In this document: positions 14,067 to 62,017 of the stretch, piece after piece | Layout: each line of letters starts with the position of its first letter | Numbering within the stretch: the first letter of the stretch is position 1 | Origin: Shigella phage SHFML-26 | Sequence record: KX130862 | Strand: one strand, 5' to 3' | DNA: 64,000 bases | Made by a program: the position numbers and the translations under genes | The notes under the pieces: model-generated | Told to the model about the DNA's origin: nothing | Databases searched by the model: none | The model's input: the letters and a program-made list of their open reading frames with translations, nothing else

Positions 14067-14669
14067 TTATAGATTAAATCCTTCAAAATCAAGAGTATAG
14101 ATAGTGTATGTTGAACACTTTTTGTACTCATATCTATCTGCAATTCTAAATACACTTCCAGCTGGTATCATTACTTCTTGTTCATCTGAAACTAATTCCA
14201 TATTACGATAACGATGACTATCCGGAAACTTAAAGTTTGGATTGTATTCTTTACAACGTAAAGCTTTTATAGCATACTCCTGGAAATTAAACACCATAGG
14301 AGCTTTGAATTCAAAAATAACTTGTGTGTTGTATTCTAATCCAGAAGCAAAATGTAGAGCTATATTTTTATCATATGAAGCTGATACTACTTTATCAAAT
14401 GTAATAATATCAATTCCTTGATTTAACACCTGTTTAATCTCAACTGGAACACCTCTCCAAAGAGGTTTATCGTTTGGAACCAAACGAGATTTGACTATTT
14501 CATTTAACCAAGAATGATCGTCTGGTTTATTAGTAATACAATGAATTAAAAGTTCAATTTCAGATAAATTAAATCCTTCGGAAAGTAATTCTTCACGAAT
14601 AGAAGCACGCACCGATGCATCCATTGATTTGATTTTAAAATCTTTTAATTGCATTGCTGAATATTTCAT
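14067..14669 (-). CDS. modA: ADP-ribosyltransferase ModA-like (200 aa)
   Basis: R-S-E-type ART motifs (WRG, SASYD, EQEVMIP); size and position. Confidence 0.6.
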   Translation of the reverse strand: MKYSAMQLKDFKIKSMDASVRASIREELLSEGFNLSEIELLIHCITNKPDDHSWLNEIVKSRLVPNDKPLWRGVPVEIKQVLNQGIDIITFDKVVSASYDKNIALHFASGLEYNTQVIFEFKAPMVFNFQEYAIKALRCKEYNPNFKFPDSHRYRNMELVSDEQEVMIPAGSVFRIADRYEYKKCSTYTIYTLDFEGFNL

Positions 14670-15289
14670 TCAACTACCTCAATATCATAAACTTTAAATG
14701 TTCCAAATGAATCGTGTAATTTTTCTTTTGAAATAGAAGTTATTTTATACTTTCCAATTGGAATCATCCATTCTTGTTCACGCACAATCATCATTAAGTT
14801 ATCAGTACGCTCTGAATCTAATCCATCAGTATCTTCATATGTATACTTAAACTCAGTATTAGGAGAAGAAAGTATAATATCGCTGATATGGTCAGAATAA
14901 TTAAAAGCTTTATCAGTTTTTAAGCGAAATATTATTTCAGTGAAATACTCAACATAAGAAAAACCACATGCTGTGTGCAAACTAGTAGTAAATGAATCTA
15001 CTCTGTTCGTTGAAAACACTTCTCCGACTTGTAAATCTTTAATGAGTTCTTTTGTCGATTTTGATATACCACGATATAACTGATATGGTGATTTAGTTAA
15101 ATGCTTTTTAATGATTTTATTCAACTGCTGATGAAGAGCTTCATTCTTTTTAGCTTCCATACATTGCCAAAGAATTGACTGTTCAAAGTCAGTAAATTTT
15201 TCACAGACCTTTTTATACATATCATATTGAAAATCAACGCTTTCAGCTTTTATAGATAACTGTTCAACATCTGCAAGATTAATAATCAT
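14666..15289 (-). CDS. modB: ADP-ribosyltransferase ModB-like (207 aa)
   Basis: ART motifs (YRG, FSTNR, EQEWMIP); ATGA overlap with modA. Confidence 0.6.
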   Translation of the reverse strand: MIINLADVEQLSIKAESVDFQYDMYKKVCEKFTDFEQSILWQCMEAKKNEALHQQLNKIIKKHLTKSPYQLYRGISKSTKELIKDLQVGEVFSTNRVDSFTTSLHTACGFSYVEYFTEIIFRLKTDKAFNYSDHISDIILSSPNTEFKYTYEDTDGLDSERTDNLMMIVREQEWMIPIGKYKITSISKEKLHDSFGTFKVYDIEVVE

Positions 15290-17498: not shown

Positions 17499-17735
17499 TT
17501 AACCACCTATTTCTGTAGGCGTAAACATTGCAGCATTCTTAGTTTTCCAAGTTGCTGCATCGGAAACTACATCAGAATAAGCTGCTTTTTCTGAAGGAAA
17601 GATTTGATAATGAGAATCTGCAATACGGTGTTCATTTGAATATACATCAAATGCTACAGAAACTTCCATACCTTTAACTTCTTTGCCTTCACCCGCTGGA
17701 TGAGTAAAGGTCTTGATGTTAACGAAACCACCCAT
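17499..17735 (-). CDS. soc: small outer capsid protein Soc
   Basis: 78-aa ORF recognised as Soc; late promoter TATAAATA upstream; terminator downstream. Confidence 0.8.
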   Translation of the reverse strand: MGGFVNIKTFTHPAGEGKEVKGMEVSVAFDVYSNEHRIADSHYQIFPSEKAAYSDVVSDAATWKTKNAAMFTPTEIGG

Positions 17736-20128: not shown

Positions 20129-20755
20129 TTAACCTCTATTCATAAAAGCATTAAAAATTTGGTCATCAATAGAAACATCTACTTTAGACTGTTTTTCTGA
20201 TGGTAATTCATATCCACATATTACAATTTTGTGATCAATATCAAAATACACAGAAGCAATATGATTAATGATGTTTTCAGTAAAGTCTAAATCAACATCA
20301 ATATCTTTTTGACCACAGCCCAAAGGATAAATAATGCGAGTAATTCGATTATCTTTAACAAAGATTCCACCGACATACTCTGTGCTGTGTTTAAAGTCTA
20401 CACGCCGACGAAATGAAAAATATTCAGGCTCTTTATGAGCTCTGCTCATAGGACACAACGAGTAACTAGAATAAGAGATGTCAAATCCTACGCCTTCGAT
20501 ATGAGCCAAAGTGTCATGATTAAACCAATTATAATCGTACGCCAAATCCATTAGATTATAATATGTAAAAGGCACCGGATTAACATCATTAGTCACAAGC
20601 ATATAATTAGCAACTGCTATAATTTCATTGTTTTTAACGAATACAAACCGTGATTGATGTGAATGACCCGGACCCGCGTTTTCACGATTAATGATATAAC
20701 ACTGGGCACCTTTATATTTGTATGTATCTTTACACTTGTGCATTTGATAGAGCAT
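20129..20755 (-). CDS. hypothetical protein (61.2 position; possible AdfA-like by position)
   Basis: 208-aa ORF between primase and sp. Confidence 0.45.
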   Translation of the reverse strand: MLYQMHKCKDTYKYKGAQCYIINRENAGPGHSHQSRFVFVKNNEIIAVANYMLVTNDVNPVPFTYYNLMDLAYDYNWFNHDTLAHIEGVGFDISYSSYSLCPMSRAHKEPEYFSFRRRVDFKHSTEYVGGIFVKDNRITRIIYPLGCGQKDIDVDLDFTENIINHIASVYFDIDHKIVICGYELPSEKQSKVDVSIDDQIFNAFMNRG

Positions 20756-24638: not shown

Positions 24639-25481
24639 TTAATCAACTGCTATTGGATGAATAGCATTAAACTTATGAAACGCTTCTGATTTTTCTTTGC
24701 GCGAAACACACATGCGAAGAACCTTTAATGGCTCGTCTTCTTCACCTAATGATTTTCGTTTTTCAATATTAGAAGTTTTCCAACGAGCTTGCTCTGGAAA
24801 CTCTCTATTGATTTGCTCAAGCGCTCTATTATGTTTAGAATTACTACGAATTGAGCTACATCCGCCTGGAGCTTGCGCTTTTCCAGATACAACCAGATAT
24901 TTGAACAAGGCCAAATGCGGATAACCTTGATTAATTAAATTGAGAAATGCATACATATCTTCGCATAAATCAATTTTTCCATACCCAATTTGTTCTGTTG
25001 TAAGTTTTCCAAGGTCATACCAAGTATTCGTGAATCCATATGAATTTTCACGATAATTACCCCAAGATGAAGTAATTTTAAAAATTGGTAAACGAGCATG
25101 ACCATGATAATACCCGCAATCCATGGCATCTTCAACGTATTGAATCAATTCATAGAACTGTTCACGAGTTAGCTGATTAATTTTATCTACGCAGCGACGA
25201 TCATCTTTCTTTCGCATTGAACTCATACGAATAGTAGTATCATCATCAATCATCCAAATTCGTTGACCTGCATACATATCAGTAATTGCTTTACGAGTAC
25301 CAGCAATTCCGTTAACATCATCAGGAATAGTTATAATTTTAGCTCTAGACCCGTAAGCGTCATAATAAGCTTTTTCTTCGTGTTCACGCACTACAATATG
25401 AGGTTCATAATCAGTCGGAAACATATCAAGGGCAGAAACTGCCCCTACGCGTTGATAGCTTGGAATTACGAATTGAATCAT
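24639..25481 (-). CDS. glycosyltransferase (GT-A-like with DxD motif) in the DNA glucosyltransferase position
   Basis: MIDDD motif; ATG at 25479-25481 forms ATGA overlap with gene 42 stop. Confidence 0.6.
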   Translation of the reverse strand: MIQFVIPSYQRVGAVSALDMFPTDYEPHIVVREHEEKAYYDAYGSRAKIITIPDDVNGIAGTRKAITDMYAGQRIWMIDDDTTIRMSSMRKKDDRRCVDKINQLTREQFYELIQYVEDAMDCGYYHGHARLPIFKITSSWGNYRENSYGFTNTWYDLGKLTTEQIGYGKIDLCEDMYAFLNLINQGYPHLALFKYLVVSGKAQAPGGCSSIRSNSKHNRALEQINREFPEQARWKTSNIEKRKSLGEEDEPLKVLRMCVSRKEKSEAFHKFNAIHPIAVD

Positions 25482-34110: not shown

Positions 34111-34965
34111 TCACAATGAAGAAAATTCTTTAACTAAAGCCTGTAATGAAGCCTCTATTGGATATCCATTCTTAACTAACATTTTCCTAAACATCACATG
34201 TTTAGGACGATTATATGATATCCACAATTCATACAATTTATCTTTATTATCCCAATGATAGCCTTTTCGTCGAGATGCTATATGAGCTTTTCTAATCTCC
34301 GGATTTTTCCAACTAGCAGCTACTGAATTTGATATAGCTATTTTATATTCAGGTTTTGATAAAGCAGCACGAACAGCCTTTTGGTGTTTAATTTTATTTT
34401 CTTCGTTATTAAACCATTCCCTTGAAGCCATTGAAATTTTTTGTTTTGTTTTAAAATTATTTAATCTTTCTTTGTTATCTTTCCTATTTTTTGCTACTGA
34501 AAAATATTTTAATGCCCTTTCTCTAGCAGCATTTCTATTTTGCGGATTTGAATAATATTGTTGAAGCCTTTTTGATATTGTGTCACTTACATCTTGTTTT
34601 ATAAAACTATATTCAGCAGCTATTAAATCAACTTCGGCTAAAGATAAATTTTTATATGTTTTTCCTGACATCATTCTATTTAAAGCATTTAGCATTTTTC
34701 CATTTTTACCTTTTGCTAATAAGAAATGTGCTTTAAAATGATTAAAATGACTTAAATTAACTAAATTCCATGTAGATTTTAAATATTCAGGAAATATTGA
34801 TTTAGGAAGCACGTGATGTGCTTCCGTTTTACCTGGAGTTTTAACAGTTGAATTCATAGAAATAAAATTAATGTAAGACTTGGCGTCTTCTTCACTCAAC
34901 GCTAATTTTTCAACTAATTCCTTTATTAAAAATTCATCATTAATGTCAAGTTTAAAATTCTTCAC
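34111..34965 (-). CDS. free-standing HNH homing endonuclease
   Basis: HNH-like motif (EAHHVLP...NLVNLSHFNHF); GTG start at 34963-34965 behind AAGGAA; inserted between 46 and 47. Confidence 0.65.
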   Translation of the reverse strand: MKNFKLDINDEFLIKELVEKLALSEEDAKSYINFISMNSTVKTPGKTEAHHVLPKSIFPEYLKSTWNLVNLSHFNHFKAHFLLAKGKNGKMLNALNRMMSGKTYKNLSLAEVDLIAAEYSFIKQDVSDTISKRLQQYYSNPQNRNAARERALKYFSVAKNRKDNKERLNNFKTKQKISMASREWFNNEENKIKHQKAVRAALSKPEYKIAISNSVAASWKNPEIRKAHIASRRKGYHWDNKDKLYELWISYNRPKHVMFRKMLVKNGYPIEASLQALVKEFSSL

Positions 34966-36579: not shown

Positions 36580-36606
36580 TATAAAGCTAAAGGGCCGAAG
36601 CCCTTT
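36580..36606 (-). terminator. stem-loop/terminator after a-gt
   Basis: AAAGGGCUUCGGCCCUUU overlapping a-gt stop. Confidence 0.45.
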
Positions 36607-37807
36607 ATTTTGTAATAATGTCAAACTGTTCTTTAAAGCAGAAGCTTGAATCTTGATGCTGATACAAAAATTCATAAGCTTTTTCTCGCTCACGGTCATA
36701 AAGAGCTCGGTCAGATGACAGTTCTTTAATACGTTCAAATGTTGATTCCATGTCATTTTCATCAAACCAAATGATACCGCTATCATGCGAGGTCAAAGGA
36801 GTATTATCAACACGGAATTTTAAATTTTCGCCAGTAGATTTCCAAAATACCGGAATTGTTCCACATGCACCAAGCTCGAGATGAGTATATTCTAAAGAAC
36901 GTTGTAGATATTTTTTGTCCAACTTACTCAACTGATAACCAAATCCGGATTTACTCATGCGTTCAAGCATTTCGCTATTTACATAACGGTCAAGAATTTG
37001 CGTTGGCAAATTAGGAGCAATTTTAATTTGGTCTACTTGATGAAGACGATAATACTCATATGGAATTCCTTTTTCTTTAATAGGAATGAACGCTGGAGAA
37101 CGTTCCAGACCTTCCATAATAGTACTTAGCCCAGCAGGTTTAAGATGTTTTTCGTGAAAATCAAACATCTGATAAAAACCTTTCCATGTAGTCGTACGAC
37201 CAATCCAGCGGTTGACATTCATGTTAATTTCAGAAACATCTTTCCAGTAGGTTGATCGAACCTTCGCAATATCCATAGGAGGCTGAAAGTTGTATACAGT
37301 CGGTGCTTCTTCAATATCATCAAACAAAGAAACAGTTTCTGGATACCATTCTTTCATCAGAACTTTATTAAAATCACCATTATCAGAATGACTAAAAATA
37401 ACATCAGCTCGACGAACAGTTTCTTCTAATCCCAAATTTCGGCGCAAAGAAAGAGAAGAATGGTCATGTTGATAAACTACAACACGAACTGAAGGTTTAA
37501 TGTTATCAATAATTTTTTTATAGTTATTAATAGTGTCTTCTTCGACTGAAGTAGCAGGAACTGAATTGATAATTAGAATATCACAATCATTTACCAGCTT
37601 AAGTGTTTTATCGTATTCTTTTGCCAATAAAACCGGAATTGAAAATGATTTATAATCATGTGCACAGTTACGAGTAAATGATTTATCTTTAGCATAAACC
37701 AAAGTTACTTCATGACCATTTTTAATAAACCAATCACGTTGCTCAAGAGAAAATTTAGTTACACCGCAACCTTCAAGACCTCGAGCCATAAAAATACATA
37801 CTTTCAT
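36605..37807 (-). CDS. agt: DNA alpha-glucosyltransferase (a-gt)
   Basis: 400 aa, GT-B-like; position after gene 47. Confidence 0.8.
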   Translation of the reverse strand: MKVCIFMARGLEGCGVTKFSLEQRDWFIKNGHEVTLVYAKDKSFTRNCAHDYKSFSIPVLLAKEYDKTLKLVNDCDILIINSVPATSVEEDTINNYKKIIDNIKPSVRVVVYQHDHSSLSLRRNLGLEETVRRADVIFSHSDNGDFNKVLMKEWYPETVSLFDDIEEAPTVYNFQPPMDIAKVRSTYWKDVSEINMNVNRWIGRTTTWKGFYQMFDFHEKHLKPAGLSTIMEGLERSPAFIPIKEKGIPYEYYRLHQVDQIKIAPNLPTQILDRYVNSEMLERMSKSGFGYQLSKLDKKYLQRSLEYTHLELGACGTIPVFWKSTGENLKFRVDNTPLTSHDSGIIWFDENDMESTFERIKELSSDRALYDREREKAYEFLYQHQDSSFCFKEQFDIITK

Positions 37808-42149: not shown

Positions 42150-42620
42150 TTAATCATGTTTCCACACCCCATCGGTATTTGACCAAAGTCGCTGATTATC
42201 TGATCCTCGCCACAGCTTTTTAGTCGGAAGATTTTTCTCATACTTCCCATCAATAATAACATCAACATATTTAAGCATTTCTAGCTGTTTAATATCTTCA
42301 AACTTATATCCTGTCCACAACCAAATGCTTTTATTGGGATAAAGATTTTTAATAGTTTGAACCACAGAGTGAATCACGTCTCTGTTATCAGGATAAAGAG
42401 GGTCTCCTCCAGTTATAGTTAATCCTTCTATATAATCATTATTCAAACATTCAATCAATTGTTCTAGTGTTTCACCGGTGAATGGAATACCATTTCTAGC
42501 ATTCCATGTTGATTTATTATAACACCCTTCACATTTATGCAAACAACCTGTAACGAAAAGAACAGTTCTGCAACCAGGGCCATTCACAAAGCAGCACGGG
42601 TATATTCTGTCATAATTCAT
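42150..42620 (-). CDS. nrdG: anaerobic ribonucleotide reductase activating protein NrdG (radical SAM)
   Basis: Cys-rich radical-SAM-like cluster; start moved to MNYDRIY (ATGA overlap with upstream gene). Confidence 0.8.
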   Translation of the reverse strand: MNYDRIYPCCFVNGPGCRTVLFVTGCLHKCEGCYNKSTWNARNGIPFTGETLEQLIECLNNDYIEGLTITGGDPLYPDNRDVIHSVVQTIKNLYPNKSIWLWTGYKFEDIKQLEMLKYVDVIIDGKYEKNLPTKKLWRGSDNQRLWSNTDGVWKHD

Positions 42621-43447
42621 AATAATATCCAATTTTTCCAAGCTTCATCAGTAGAATTACAGCGTTTTAGTATAAGATGTCTAGAAACTTTTATGGCATT
42701 TGAGCACTTTTTAATTGAATCATATTTAATACCGTCAACTGAAACGGTTTTGCTAGTTGGAGAAATTTTTCCATACATTGGATTTTTTGAACCAACTTGA
42801 AGTCCTTTTAAAGCTTTTGAAAGCTTTTGTCTAGATTCCAATGACATGGGAGAATTCTTTTTACCTTCAATAATTCGCTTGCGATGAAGTTCGCGTTCTT
42901 CTTCACTCAAAGAATTGTAATATTTTTTAACACCGTTTGATATAGATAATTTATCTTTCTCAGACCGCTCTCCAGCTAATTTACTTCTAACATCTTTTCG
43001 CTTCATAGCTATGCTTACGGCTTTATTTAAATTTGCTTGATGCTCTGGCGTACGTTTATATTTCTTTAAAGCACGTGAAATAGCTATTTTAGTTTCTTCT
43101 GTTCTCTTTTTACCTTTATTTGCTAAACTATTTTTGTGGCGATGTTCAAGTGTCTGTTCATAGGCAGTTCCACCTTTTCCACCAGGTTTAATATTATATG
43201 TATTTTCTTTTAGACAATACTCTTCAGTTACAAGTTCAGCTTCTTTATCATACATTTGCTTTTCATTATCAAAAACATATAAAATTTCTTTATAAAAATT
43301 TTTTCTACCATATTTTAATAAAGCAGCACGAATCAATGTTCCTGATCCCATATAACCGTCATTTATATTATCGGTGCTATGCGCACCGATATATTCCTTT
43401 GAATTAATTATATTTGTTATTTTATAAATTATATAATACCTATGCAT
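42617..43447 (-). CDS. free-standing GIY-YIG homing endonuclease
   Basis: N-terminal GIY-YIG motifs (YYIIYKITN...EYIGAHS...YMGSG); overlaps nrdG start and nrdD end. Confidence 0.7.
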   Translation of the reverse strand: MHRYYIIYKITNIINSKEYIGAHSTDNINDGYMGSGTLIRAALLKYGRKNFYKEILYVFDNEKQMYDKEAELVTEEYCLKENTYNIKPGGKGGTAYEQTLEHRHKNSLANKGKKRTEETKIAISRALKKYKRTPEHQANLNKAVSIAMKRKDVRSKLAGERSEKDKLSISNGVKKYYNSLSEEERELHRKRIIEGKKNSPMSLESRQKLSKALKGLQVGSKNPMYGKISPTSKTVSVDGIKYDSIKKCSNAIKVSRHLILKRCNSTDEAWKNWILL

Positions 43448-58806: not shown

Positions 58807-59388
58807 CTAACCGAGCTTTTTAGTTAATTCGTTCCAATGTTTTCTACACAAAGAAACATAAATTTCATCACCAATACAGATTTGATTACCTTCTTTAACT
58901 GGTGTTCCATCTTCCATTAATCGAGCTGTCATAATAGCTTTTTTACCACAATGACAAACTGCCTTTAGTTCAATAAGTTTATCTGCAATCGCCAAAAGTT
59001 CTTTAGAACCTTCAAATAATTTTCCAGCGAAATCAGTCCTTAGCCCATAAGCCATAACAGGAACATTATATGTATCAACAATTCGACTTAATTGATGCAC
59101 CTGTTCGGTTTTTAAAAACTGAGCTTCATCTACAAATACACAATGAATATCTTTTTGTGCTTCAGCCCATTTATAGAACTCAAAAATATCCATATCATCC
59201 GTAATAATATTCGCTTCCTGCTTAATTCCAATGCGAGAAACGACTTCACAGACAGAATCACGAGTATCAATAGCAGGCTTAAGAACTAATACACCCATTC
59301 CGCGTTCTTTATAATTATGTGCAGCAGTCAAAAGAGAAGCAGATTTTCCAGCATTCATTGCTGCGTAAGTAAAAATTAAACTCGCCAT
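58807..59388 (-). CDS. tk: thymidine kinase
   Basis: 193 aa; P-loop AAMNAGKS; C-terminal zinc Cys pairs. Confidence 0.9.
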   Translation of the reverse strand: MASLIFTYAAMNAGKSASLLTAAHNYKERGMGVLVLKPAIDTRDSVCEVVSRIGIKQEANIITDDMDIFEFYKWAEAQKDIHCVFVDEAQFLKTEQVHQLSRIVDTYNVPVMAYGLRTDFAGKLFEGSKELLAIADKLIELKAVCHCGKKAIMTARLMEDGTPVKEGNQICIGDEIYVSLCRKHWNELTKKLG

Positions 59389-59397
59389 ATCACCTTC

Positions 59398-59583
59398 TTA
59401 AAGCGTATTCACATAAGCTATTAATTCGTTTTCTTTCTTATCAAACCGATCAGCAAATTCTTCTTGCTGATCGGGAGATAGCGGGCCGTATTCATCATAA
59501 AAGGTGTTTGCTTCTGTATGCTCATCTAGAAGTTCATGGATAAGCTCAAACAATTTATCTTTTTGTTCTTTACTCAGACTCAT
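59398..59583 (-). CDS. hypothetical acidic small protein
   Basis: ORF track. Confidence 0.4.
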   Translation of the reverse strand: MSLSKEQKDKLFELIHELLDEHTEANTFYDEYGPLSPDQQEEFADRFDKKENELIAYVNTL

Positions 59584-59753
59584 ATATTAATTTCCAGGAG
59601 TTTTAAAATAATTCGCTTTTGCTTAAATATTTCCATAGTTAAATGACCAGTATCTTTTTGACCGATTCCAATGGCAAAACCTTTATTGACAGCGAGTTCA
59701 ATTAAATTATCAAGCTCACGTAACACTTCATATTGTAACTCAAAACTATTCAT
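59580..59753 (-). CDS. small protein (57 aa)
   Basis: Own translation MNSFELQYEVLRELDNLIELAVNKGF...; ATGA overlaps at both ends. Confidence 0.35.
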   Translation of the reverse strand: MNSFELQYEVLRELDNLIELAVNKGFAIGIGQKDTGHLTMEIFKQKRIILKLLEINI

Positions 59754-59962
59754 TTTGGTTTACCTTCTTTAACGAAATCAGGATAAGGATAAAATCCTGA
59801 ATAAAATCCTTCACCTTTATGATTGATGCATCCTTTATTAGAACAATAGCACCAATAATCGAAATCACAAGCCATTTCATCATTACATAAAGCAAAAACA
59901 ATCGGCCATTCACACTTTTCGCAGTGGGCATTTTTAAGAATACTAGTTTGGCTCATAACCAT
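59750..59962 (-). CDS. Cys-rich small protein (putative zinc-binding)
   Basis: ORF track 59750..59977 trimmed to internal Met; many Cys. Confidence 0.4.
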   Translation of the reverse strand: MVMSQTSILKNAHCEKCEWPIVFALCNDEMACDFDYWCYCSNKGCINHKGEGFYSGFYPYPDFVKEGKPK

Positions 59963-60165
59963 GTAACCTTTAAACAATATTCTTCTACATGTTGTTTACG
60001 ACCTTTCCTATCAATAAAGGTATATTCAACGAATGTTCCAATATAGTCTTTATCTACATCATGTGGACTATTAATTGGGCATTTAGTACGGCAAATGCGT
60101 TCCCATTGACGAATAATTTCCACTTTGTTTTTAGGATCAAACGGATGCGGGTAATGTACTTTCAT
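59953..60165 (-). CDS. hypothetical protein
   Basis: ORF track. Confidence 0.4.
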   Translation of the reverse strand: MKVHYPHPFDPKNKVEIIRQWERICRTKCPINSPHDVDKDYIGTFVEYTFIDRKGRKQHVEEYCLKVTWL

Positions 60166-60616
60166 AATCCACCACTATTAAATCAATATCAGGAGTAAAC
60201 ATGTCGATTAATTTAGAAACCTTATCCCAATCGCCGCCAGCAATACCGCAACCTATGCGTGGAATGTAAATTACTGGTTTAAACAAAAGGGTTTCTGCCT
60301 GTAGATTTAATTCTATCATGCAGTTTACTAAAGCACCATAATCAAGATTAGGACCCGGTTCGTATTGTGTATACAGGTTATAGCATATACCAAATCCCGT
60401 AGGACTATGTTTAAAAACAATAGACATATCGCCTAATTTATCACGAGAACCGTACTCGGTAGTGGTTTTATCTATTTCTAAAATTTTGGGATAGGCTCTT
60501 GCTAATTGACCTGCTACGCCAGAGCCCATTGTGTGGAAGCAATTGCACCCGTGCGCAATAATATTACCTTGAAGAAATAGGGCGACAATATCGCCCTTGA
60601 TATATTTTACAATCAT
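60137..60616 (-). CDS. macro-domain (ADP-ribose-binding/processing) protein
   Basis: Motif HGCNCFHTMGSGVAGQ resembles macro-domain NAAN + G-rich loop. Confidence 0.5.
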   Translation of the reverse strand: MIVKYIKGDIVALFLQGNIIAHGCNCFHTMGSGVAGQLARAYPKILEIDKTTTEYGSRDKLGDMSIVFKHSPTGFGICYNLYTQYEPGPNLDYGALVNCMIELNLQAETLLFKPVIYIPRIGCGIAGGDWDKVSKLIDMFTPDIDLIVVDYESTLPASV

Positions 60617-60954
60617 CTAGTACTCAATCCTCGATTATAAGAATCTACTAAACGGTCAACCATTGAATGACAAGCGGCTTTATCTTTCTCCTCCGCAACT
60701 GAACATTCTAAGGTATTCCACTTTTTAGCATATCGTTTTAACAATGTATCATTTTTGTATCTGCTTGATTTATCTCTTTCTCCGTCTTTATATGCATATA
60801 TTAATTTCTGCGCAAATTCAGCTTGGCATGCTTTATTTTTCCCGCAATAATCCGCTGCAGTACGGTTTACATACTCTCTAATTTCAGTATATGATGTATC
60901 TGCTAACGCAGAAAATGAAATTAATCCTATACATAAAACCAAAATTTTAGTCAT
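60613..60954 (-). CDS. secreted protein (signal peptide)
   Basis: ORF track; N-terminal signal sequence. Confidence 0.45.
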   Translation of the reverse strand: MTKILVLCIGLISFSALADTSYTEIREYVNRTAADYCGKNKACQAEFAQKLIYAYKDGERDKSSRYKNDTLLKRYAKKWNTLECSVAEEKDKAACHSMVDRLVDSYNRGLSTR

Positions 60955-61321
60955 TTACTATTTCCAAAAGTTTATTATTTTTAAGGTAATTAGCCTTTTC
61001 TAGGACTTCAGAAGCATATTTAGAACCTGCTTTAACATTCCATCCCGAATTATAAGAGGATATTGCTTTTCTTATATCGCCCTTATGTATATTTAACCAA
61101 TAAGAAAGTTCAATGTACGCCCAGGAAGCTGAATTGGACCGTTTATTCAACATTCTTTTTATTTCAGCATCGGTCATATTATAACCAAGTTCCTTGACTC
61201 TCGCTCGCATAGTAGGCAAATAATTTTGGAACATTCCATAGGCATGATGCTTTGGTTTAGATTTTAAATTAACTCCGGCAGAGCTTTCTTGCCACAAAAT
61301 AGCAGCCATTATATGACCCAA
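60947..61321 (-). CDS. lytic-transglycosylase-like (SLT domain) protein
   Basis: ES...AYGMFQ-type SLT motif. Confidence 0.5.
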   Translation of the reverse strand: MGHIMAAILWQESSAGVNLKSKPKHHAYGMFQNYLPTMRARVKELGYNMTDAEIKRMLNKRSNSASWAYIELSYWLNIHKGDIRKAISSYNSGWNVKAGSKYASEVLEKANYLKNNKLLEIVND

Positions 61322-61491
61322 TCCGCTCTTATGGATGTTTTTGTGTGTTTTATATTTTCCATCCTTAGAAAATTGTTCCCGAATTGATACGCGTAACGCA
61401 TGTTATCGAGTTGGACATTACTGAAAGTATGCTCGGAGCTATGTGCCATCATTGAAATGGCCAATAGACCAGCGAGTAGTGCTTTTCTCAT
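61309..61491 (-). CDS. small secreted protein
   Basis: ORF track; signal-like N-terminus. Confidence 0.35.
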   Translation of the reverse strand: MRKALLAGLLAISMMAHSSEHTFSNVQLDNMRYAYQFGNNFLRMENIKHTKTSIRADWVI

Positions 61492-61498
61492 GCTTACC

Positions 61499-61960
61499 TC
61501 ATTGAGTTTTAATTACTGCTTTAGAAGCCTTTCCTGGTAAACGACGACTGTTGATAATTGCCATCCTGCATTGAAGTGACGGGTTTTTGAACTTCTCATT
61601 AGGCTTACAAACCGTAAATCCAAGCCAAAGATTTCCATCTGTGATTTCTAAACGTCCAGGACGATATTCAACCCCATCAATAAAATCCTCGTCAATGTCA
61701 GGACGCGGAGGCATACTCAGGAATTCATTAACTTCTAAAACATGGTCTTTTATTTTATGGAATAATTCAAAAACATATGTCTCATCAATCTCCCGTTGAA
61801 TTGCACGATCAAGAAGATGTTGAGAATATTTTAGATGAAACGATGAGACTCCTGCTGCTTTTGATGCCTCACGAATCTCATTGTTAATTTGACGAAACTC
61901 CGACTCAAAATGACGACGAAGCTTATTTCGACGGATAAAAACTTCTGTATTGATAGTCAT
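61499..61960 (-). CDS. regB: RegB endoribonuclease
   Basis: 153 aa; recognised RegB sequence; early promoter upstream. Confidence 0.8.
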   Translation of the reverse strand: MTINTEVFIRRNKLRRHFESEFRQINNEIREASKAAGVSSFHLKYSQHLLDRAIQREIDETYVFELFHKIKDHVLEVNEFLSMPPRPDIDEDFIDGVEYRPGRLEITDGNLWLGFTVCKPNEKFKNPSLQCRMAIINSRRLPGKASKAVIKTQ

Positions 61961-61987: not shown

Positions 61988-62017
61988 ATTATACCACAGT
62001 CAAGAGGAAAAGTAAAC
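61988..62017 (-). promoter_or_regulatory. T4-type early promoter upstream of regB
   Basis: GTTTAC ... TATAAT. Confidence 0.55.

Follow-up and report, generated by a model that had tools for sequence, protein, structure and literature searches.

What does a small macrodomain gene do in a T4-like phage, and on which ADP-ribose mark does its product act? The question is raised by positions 60137..60616 (minus strand) of a 64,000-nucleotide stretch of DNA from Shigella phage SHFML-26 (record KX130862), the whole of which we call the window. These positions encode a 159–amino acid, single-domain macrodomain protein with an ATG start. A sequence-only reading had called the protein a macro-domain protein on the strength of one motif, had coupled it to the ModA and ModB ADP-ribosyltransferases of the same genome as a reader or eraser of their marks, and had suggested that it could also counter host ADP-ribosylating defenses. 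We find that the first and the last of these proposals stand, and that they lead to a phage gene whose T4 counterpart protects against a host defense system.

The macro-domain call was borne out by independent kinds of evidence. The protein matches Pfam PF01661 (Macro) at 32 bits against a 22-bit gathering cutoff (E = 1.3e-7), over positions 2 to 117 of the 118-position profile, and it matches PHROG 335 at E = 1e-71. A phmmer search against PDB sequences matched BT1257, Poa1p, SCO6735, Mtb DarG, and TARG1, and a 78-sequence profile lifted those matches to E-values of 1e-19 through 6e-10. Structure prediction answered the question of whether the fold might be absent, because AlphaFold run with the 78-sequence alignment produced it with high confidence (pLDDT 94.6, pTM 0.89). 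A database twin stands in for the T4 Tk.4 entry in this alignment, and an initial single-sequence model (pLDDT 34) was discarded in its favor. The predicted structure has the three layers (α/β/α) and the central mixed sheet of the macrodomain fold and can be superposed on solved members of the family, and a Foldseek search of PDB with this model ranked TARG1, Poa1p, BT1257, and DarG at the top (probability 1.0). Together, the Pfam, PHROG, PDB profile, and Foldseek matches place the protein in the ALC1-like/TARG1-like macrodomain class. The motif that had been read as an ADP-ribose–binding loop also proved well chosen. It comprises residues 22 to 37 (HGCNCFHTMGSGVAGQ; 60506..60553, minus strand), in which a catalytic H-G-C-N segment (H22, N25) is joined to the first Gly-rich ADP-ribose/phosphate loop. 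This loop (MGSGVAG, residues 30 to 36) and the second Gly-rich loop (GCGIAGG, residues 122 to 128) are conserved in the 78 homologs.

The genomic setting identifies the gene. The window comes from a T4-like phage, a Tequatrovirus, and over the 2 kb surrounding the gene it shows 99.5% identity to Escherichia phage vB_EcoM_OE5505, in which the counterpart coding sequence (CDS; QBQ79441.1) is already annotated as "macro domain protein." Phage PBM-1 carries an exact copy of the protein, annotated as "phosphatase." In T4, the matching slot (NC_000866, 60922..61389) is occupied by tk.4, annotated as "phosphatase; contains A1pp phosphatase motif." The gene order vs, tk.4, tk.3 is common to the window and T4, and the two proteins align over 155 amino acids with zero gaps at 58% identity (E = 1e-70). 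Synteny and sequence thus both point to the window gene as the tk.4 (adfM) ortholog of a T4-like phage.

On one side of tk.4 lie vs (60613..60954, 97% identical to T4; PHROG "valyl tRNA synthetase modifier"), the adjoining vs.1 (60947..61491, minus strand; 181 amino acids in T4), and regB (61499..61960, 99%). On the other side are tk.3 (59953..60165, 91%), which the 3' end of tk.4 overlaps by 29 nt; three small open reading frames (ORFs) of unknown function (59398..59583, 59580..59753, and 59750..59962; PHROGs 653, 3452, and 2306); and tk (58807..59388, 99%). Relative to T4 Tk.4, the window protein has a four-residue C-terminal extension. The interval from tk to tk.4 is a recombination patchwork in which the three small ORFs replace T4 tk.1 and tk.2 and the body of tk.4 is a different allele; tk.3, in between, and vs, on the far side, are for the most part 92 to 100% identical to T4. 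A 1-nt deletion in a C-run of vs.1 (CCCC to CCC on the plus strand, at about 61377), relative to both T4 and OE5505, splits that gene into ORFs at 60947..61321 and 61309..61491; it is either genuine (a frameshift or pseudogene) or a homopolymer sequencing error.

Several features bear on how tk.4 is expressed. By ORF coordinates and sequence, vs ends and tk.4 begins within one ATGA, in which the stop and start codons overlap (60613..60616, minus strand), an arrangement indicative of translational coupling, and in the mRNA sense a GAGGA Shine-Dalgarno sequence, identical in T4, precedes the tk.4 ATG by 11 nt (60628..60632, minus strand). Inside the CDS, a terminator-like match consists of an 8– to 9–base pair GC-rich hairpin followed by a U-rich tract in codons 7 to 13, 17 nt after the start codon (60579..60597, minus strand; predicted RNA folding energy −12.9 kcal/mol here, −13.4 kcal/mol for T4). 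The hairpin is identical in T4, although the two alleles diverge just downstream, and in record OL631480.1 a "terminator" is annotated beneath the match to this region. It may act as an attenuator of read-through from vs into tk.4 or as a stability element. Between regB and tk, no terminator was found except this hairpin. The strongest σ70-like promoter match of the region is found immediately before regB (61988..62016, minus strand; TTTACT-17-TATAAT with an upstream TG, 10/12). This consensus match is a plausible candidate for the early promoter of a regB-vs.1-vs-tk.4 unit.

The proposed role against host ADP-ribosylating defenses is supported by the T4 ortholog. When HIDEN-SEQ was applied on a host expressing DarTG2, tk.4 was the one T4 gene that came out as significantly required (a November 2025 preprint, bioRxiv 10.1101/2025.11.20.689424), and knocking tk.4 out cleanly sensitized the phage to DarTG2 (same preprint); hence the name adfM, for anti-DarT factor Macrodomain. 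Earlier work had found T4 without both AdfA (gp61.2) and AdfN (gp30.3, a NADAR protein) to be still DarTG2 resistant, and a further anti-DarTG2 factor was therefore predicted. The preprint authors also saw structural similarity of Tk.4 to Mtb DarG and inferred, on genetic evidence only, that Tk.4 removes ADP-ribose (ADPr) from DNA (bioRxiv 10.1101/2025.11.20.689424). PhiKZ gp104, independently named AdfM, strips ADPr from DarT2-modified DNA in vitro, for which N23 is needed (Cell Rep 2026, PMC13309987). Because the gene is annotated in public records and the role of its ortholog has been published, both are already known: the window phage carries the T-even anti-DarTG2 macrodomain. For the window-type allele itself, as in the BASEL T-even phages, we found no published DarTG2 tests, only the general statement that tested Tevenvirinae are DarTG2 resistant.

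The sensitization of T4 to DarTG2 by deletion of tk.4 points to removal of thymine ADPr as the most likely function. We consider it probable that window Tk.4 is an early, orphan ADP-ribosylglycohydrolase that takes DarT2-made thymine-ADPr off single-stranded phage DNA and so restores replication; sequence suggests the same activity for the window allele as for its 58%-identical T4 counterpart. The product would be made early, from the regB-vs.1-vs-tk.4 transcription unit. Host DarT2 would attach ADP-ribose to thymine within the TNTC motifs of phage DNA in its single-stranded form, and Tk.4 would then hydrolyze the N-glycosidic thymine–ADP-ribose bond, leaving free ADP-ribose and a replicable template. 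Being free-standing and "orphan-antitoxin-like," such an enzyme would allow escape from DarTG2 without any need to bind the toxin.

The active site indicates how this chemistry might proceed. Twelve residues are invariant among the 78 homologs (H22, G23, N25, C26, G33, A35, D49, N80, Y82, Q84, P119, and W130), all of them present in both the window and T4 alleles, and conservation is 90% or higher at five more (G122, G124, A126, G127, and G128). The segment NLYTQ (residues 80 to 84; 60365..60379, minus strand) puts Gln84 where TARG1 and DarG have their catalytic Lys (K84 and K80, respectively); in the profile alignment, it lies opposite K84 in the "LITK" of TARG1 and the Gln in the "GQ" of BT1257. 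The second Gly-rich, diphosphate-binding loop occupies residues 122 to 130 (GCGIAGGDW; 60227..60253, minus strand), where Ala126 is opposite the catalytic Asp125 of TARG1 ("IGCGLDRLQW"). Window Tk.4 is therefore not of the TARG1/DarG catalytic type, having neither the catalytic Lys nor the Asp of TARG1. It has the residues of a Gln-type enzyme: Gln at the catalytic-Lys position, Asn25, and His22 of the H-x-C-N segment. Asn25 falls at the position of SCO6735 Asn27 and PhiKZ AdfM N23, whose mutation cripples activity.

The precedent for such a site is SCO6735. Its Gln85 corresponds structurally to TARG1 K84 and DarG K80 (PMC9411070), its Q85A mutant is inactive and N27S almost inactive (PMC9411070), and it cleaves DarT-made thymine-ADPr on single-stranded DNA, for which a water-mediated mechanism has been proposed (PMC9411070). 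The thymine-ADPr cleavage has been confirmed with synthetic substrates. The match of Q84, N25, and H22 to SCO6735 marks T4-type Tk.4 as a Gln-type (SCO6735/BT1257-like) macrodomain, not the Lys type of DarG or PhiKZ AdfM. With SCO6735-like chemistry, Gln84, held by Asn25, would position the distal ribose and a water would act, with no catalytic Lys or Asp. A hydrolytic mechanism for T4-type Tk.4 is suggested by analogy, the in vitro demonstrations being those for SCO6735 and PhiKZ AdfM. Note that the extended mobile loop of SCO6735 carries the DNA-binding lysines K89 and K94; the loop that follows Q84 in the window protein (YEPGPNLDY) contains no Lys, and BT1257 has a six-residue insertion at that place.

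The window and T4 carry strongly diverged alleles of this gene. Most syntenic proteins in the 64-kb window are 90 to 100% identical to T4, as are ModA (98%), ModB (96%), AdfA (96%), and DNA polymerase (99.5%), whereas Tk.4 (58%) belongs to the three or four most divergent. In a 60-nt identity profile of the window against T4, in which the borders are sharp, nucleotide identity is 82 to 97% in tk.3 (59961..60140), 52 to 70% in the diverged body of tk.4 (60141..60500, minus strand), 80 to 88% at the 5' end of tk.4 (60501..60620), and 92 to 100% from vs onward (from 60621); the tk.1/tk.2 region (59400..59960) is essentially unrelated to T4. Residues 1 to 14 of the two proteins are identical, and residues 1 to 38 differ at five positions.

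Tk.4 is under purifying selection. Between the window and T4 genes, dN is 0.38 and dS 1.9 (ratio ~0.2); residues 1 to 38 have a dN of 0.06, and residues 39 to 155 a dN of 0.52 with dS saturated. We considered positive selection between the alleles and rejected it, given the ratio of ~0.2 and the saturated dS. Mean column conservation is 0.38 at allele differences, compared with 0.66 at identical positions. Where the alleles differ, the residue agrees with the family consensus 32 times in the window allele and 17 times in the T4 allele, in a comparison set chosen by similarity to the window protein. In the second Gly-rich loop, the window's GCGIAGGDW is the consensus, and T4 has GAGIGKGNW, with its deviations (A126G, G127K, and D129N) in columns that are 83 to 96% conserved. 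Thus, the T4 allele, which is the one studied by experiment, is atypical in its diphosphate loop, and the window allele is the consensus form.

Among the phage records in our collection, window-type tk.4 occurs in 311 at ≥90% identity, and the T4 type occurs in 224 at ≥90% and in 159 more at 80 to 90%; a Tk.4 homolog of some kind is present in 2788 records from diverse phage groups. By this count, the window-type allele is at least as common as the T4 type in sequenced phages (comparing the records at ≥90%). These patterns fit two old, purified alleles that have been swapped by recombination in a hyperplastic region and not a recent adaptive divergence. The tk.4 locus would then be a recombination hotspot with two old alleles, offering a natural allele-swap test of nucleic acid de–ADP-ribosylation specificity.

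The existence of two alleles raises the question of whether both act on the same substrate. Tk.4 could be a broader base de–ADP-ribosylase, acting on DarT2 marks in DNA and also on uracil-ADPr in RNA, or on the products of other host ADP-ribosyltransferases (ARTs), with allele classes that differ in substrate range. SCO6735, which among characterized enzymes has the closest type of active site, hydrolyzes both T-ADPr DNA and U-ADPr RNA, the latter more efficiently than DarG does (PMC13036486). Enzymes of the SCO6735 type also accept U-ADPr in RNA and Glu-ADPr in proteins, so that Tk.4 may have targets other than DNA. The two ancient allele classes coexist in Tequatrovirus-like genomes, in hundreds of records each, and their diphosphate loops are not the same (T4 has G127K). 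However, no bacterial defense based on a uracil-RNA ART is known, and the low dN/dS (~0.2), together with the conservation of the catalytic residues, is what functionally equivalent alleles would show. CmdTAC, whose CmdT makes adenine-RNA ADPr, was rejected as a Tk.4 target, because it strongly defends against T4, which carries tk.4, and CmdT is therefore not neutralized by Tk.4. We regard a broader substrate range as unlikely.

A related reading holds that the two alleles are non-equivalent, are shuffled into near-identical Tequatrovirus genomes, and are kept there by balancing selection, the Gln type being a counter-defense lineage recruited independently of PhiKZ AdfM. Balancing might stem from a difference in substrate range (for instance, variants of DarT2, ADPr on uracil in RNA, or further host ARTs) or from hosts that sense or inhibit one of the alleles. 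We hold this reading, including the proposed grounds, to be unlikely as well.

The "phosphatase" and "A1pp motif" annotations arise from Poa1p, the yeast ADP-ribose-1''-phosphate (Appr-1''-p) phosphatase, and they suggest an alternative in which Tk.4 mainly processes small-molecule ADPr derivatives, either as a Poa1p-like phosphatase or by hydrolyzing immune signals or toxic metabolites that derive from ADPr. The H-x-C-N-C motif is common to the two proteins: H22 aligns with Poa1p H23 and T29 with S30, a conservative change, where the roles of the Poa1p residues are those suggested by the titles of PDB entries. A motif held in common with an Appr-1''-p phosphatase makes another or an additional substrate possible, and phage macrodomains in general have been proposed to act in this way (PMC9503650). 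Yet the only known phenotype of the ortholog is specific to DarTG2, and T4 infection has no known source of Appr-1''-p, to judge from the T4 RNA-repair pathway. Furthermore, many macrodomains have such phosphatase activity in vitro with no physiological meaning attached to it. A small-molecule substrate is thus distinctly unlikely.

Still less probable is the pairing that the sequence-only reading had drawn with the phage's own transferases, that is, a write/erase cycle in which Tk.4 erases or reads the ADPr (or RNA-ADPr) marks made by Alt, ModA, or ModB. The ModA and ModB genes are indeed present in the window (14067..15289), and Arg-specific macrodomains do occur in nature, in the form of the MavL class as cited in PMC13036486. 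However, the marks concerned are arginine N-glycosides. ModA targets Arg265 of RNA polymerase α (PMC8120803), and ARH1 takes off the ModB marks, whereas neither NH2OH nor ARH3 does so (PMC10468400). The documented substrates of the TARG1/DarG/SCO6735 class are ADPr on thymine or uracil bases and Glu/Asp esters (PMC9411070 and PMC13036486). The structural neighbors of the predicted Tk.4 model are all of the TARG1/DarG/Poa1p type, with none of the MavL type. Genomic and transcriptional linkage is also lacking, as tk.4 lies 45 kb from modA and modB in a different transcription unit. T4 tk.4 scored on DarTG2 hosts only, and more than 2700 phage records from diverse groups carry Tk.4 homologs. The proposed writer/eraser pair therefore found no support; given that MavL-class enzymes exist, erasure of the phage's own marks is very unlikely rather than impossible. 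A catalytically inactive ADP-ribose "reader," which the missing Lys and Asp of TARG1/DarG might suggest, is the least credible reading of all, because the Gln/Asn/His constellation is that of the active SCO6735 and is invariant in the family, and because the T4 ortholog, in which these residues are identical, confers protection from a toxin that is itself an enzyme.

Removal of DarT2-made thymine-ADPr from phage DNA remains the reading that we prefer, and the window holds a second gene of related purpose. A homolog of AdfA (T4 gp61.2, the anti-DarT1 factor) lies at 20129..20755 (minus strand), is 96% identical, and keeps the His of the T4-like "IINHIAS" segment; together with tk.4, it gives the window at least two anti-DarT genes. 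AdfN (30.3) would fall outside the window. Other differences from T4 lie elsewhere. In place of the segA and β-glucosyltransferase genes of T4, the window has at 24639..25481 (minus strand) a gene for a 280–amino acid β-glucosyl-HMC-α-glucosyltransferase (PHROG 842, E = 6e-89), and alpha-gt is retained (36605..37807, 91% identical); by sequence, these two genes would make up a T2/T6-style DNA glucosylation set. Homing-endonuclease genes at 34111..34857 and 42617..43447 (minus strand), which match PHROG 655 (HNH type) and PHROG 314, are weakly similar to T4 genes sited elsewhere (mobD and segA). A soc-like head protein (17499..17735) is 46% identical to T4 Soc.

How, then, does window Tk.4 compare with known systems? 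Its closest relative among characterized proteins is T4 Tk.4, with which it has in common the genomic slot, the length class, a gap-free alignment, and H22, N25, and Q84. It differs in being only 58% identical, when most of its neighbors are 90 to 100% identical, and in being four residues longer at the C terminus. Outside phages, the best sequence and structure matches are SCO6735 of Streptomyces coelicolor (PDB 5E3B) and BT1257 (PDB 2AFC/2FG1). They too have Gln in place of the catalytic Lys, the Asn and His of H-x-C-N, and no catalytic Asp, and they are likewise orphan genes with no adjacent toxin. At the one locus of a bacterial homolog that we inspected (P0094 of Pelagimonas), no DarT-like toxin or ART was adjacent, the gene being an orphan among housekeeping genes. 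The differences are that BT1257 is ~26 to 29% identical to window Tk.4, that SCO6735 has Val25 where window Tk.4 has Gly23, and that both are cellular, DNA damage–linked proteins, not phage counter-defense factors.

Two further enzymes belong to the same fold class. Human TARG1 removes T- and U-ADPr too but does so with a Lys84/Asp125 dyad that is absent from window Tk.4. Yeast Poa1p (PDB 6LFQ-6LFU) has the H-x-C-N-C motif in common with it, but its physiological substrate is not to be expected in T4 infection, again judging from what is known of that infection. Among phage countermeasures against DarTG, T4 AdfN and AdfA are comparable in purpose, and AdfN (gp30.3, NADAR) is also an orphan antitoxin-like glycohydrolase; however, both have unrelated folds and act against DarTG1 (guanine-ADPr), not DarTG2. 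ICP1 AdfB was rejected as a homologous macrodomain, as it is a 77–amino acid direct binder of DarT with no enzymatic fold.

Window Tk.4 is only remotely related to DarG. The DarG macrodomain (PDB 5M3I, 5M31, and 7OMU) has the catalytic Lys80 where window Tk.4 has Gln. We considered true DarG membership and rejected it, because the Lys is missing, the protein is a single domain of 159 amino acids, and the HMM thresholds are not reached: NCBIfam NF048014 (DarG) gives 27.7 bits against a 250-bit cutoff, over the macrodomain part of the model only. With the PADLOC DarG model, window Tk.4 scores 27.5 bits, T4 Tk.4 36, and PhiKZ gp104 133. Neither a C-terminal DarT-binding domain nor an adjacent darT was found, the neighbors being vs and tk.3.

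PhiKZ gp104 resembles window Tk.4 in being a free-standing phage macrodomain that counters DarTG2 and in having the conserved Asn. It differs in carrying the "FPTK" lysine of DarG, in matching Mtb DarG at E = 9e-25, and in aligning with window Tk.4 in two short patches only. The Lys-type, DarG-like gp104 and the Gln-type Tk.4 are not subfamily-level homologs but belong to separate branches of one fold class, so that the name "AdfM" covers two independently recruited enzymes. We did not find a statement to this effect in PMC13309987 or in bioRxiv 10.1101/2025.11.20.689424. Phages have thus recruited two TARG1-like branches for the same job.
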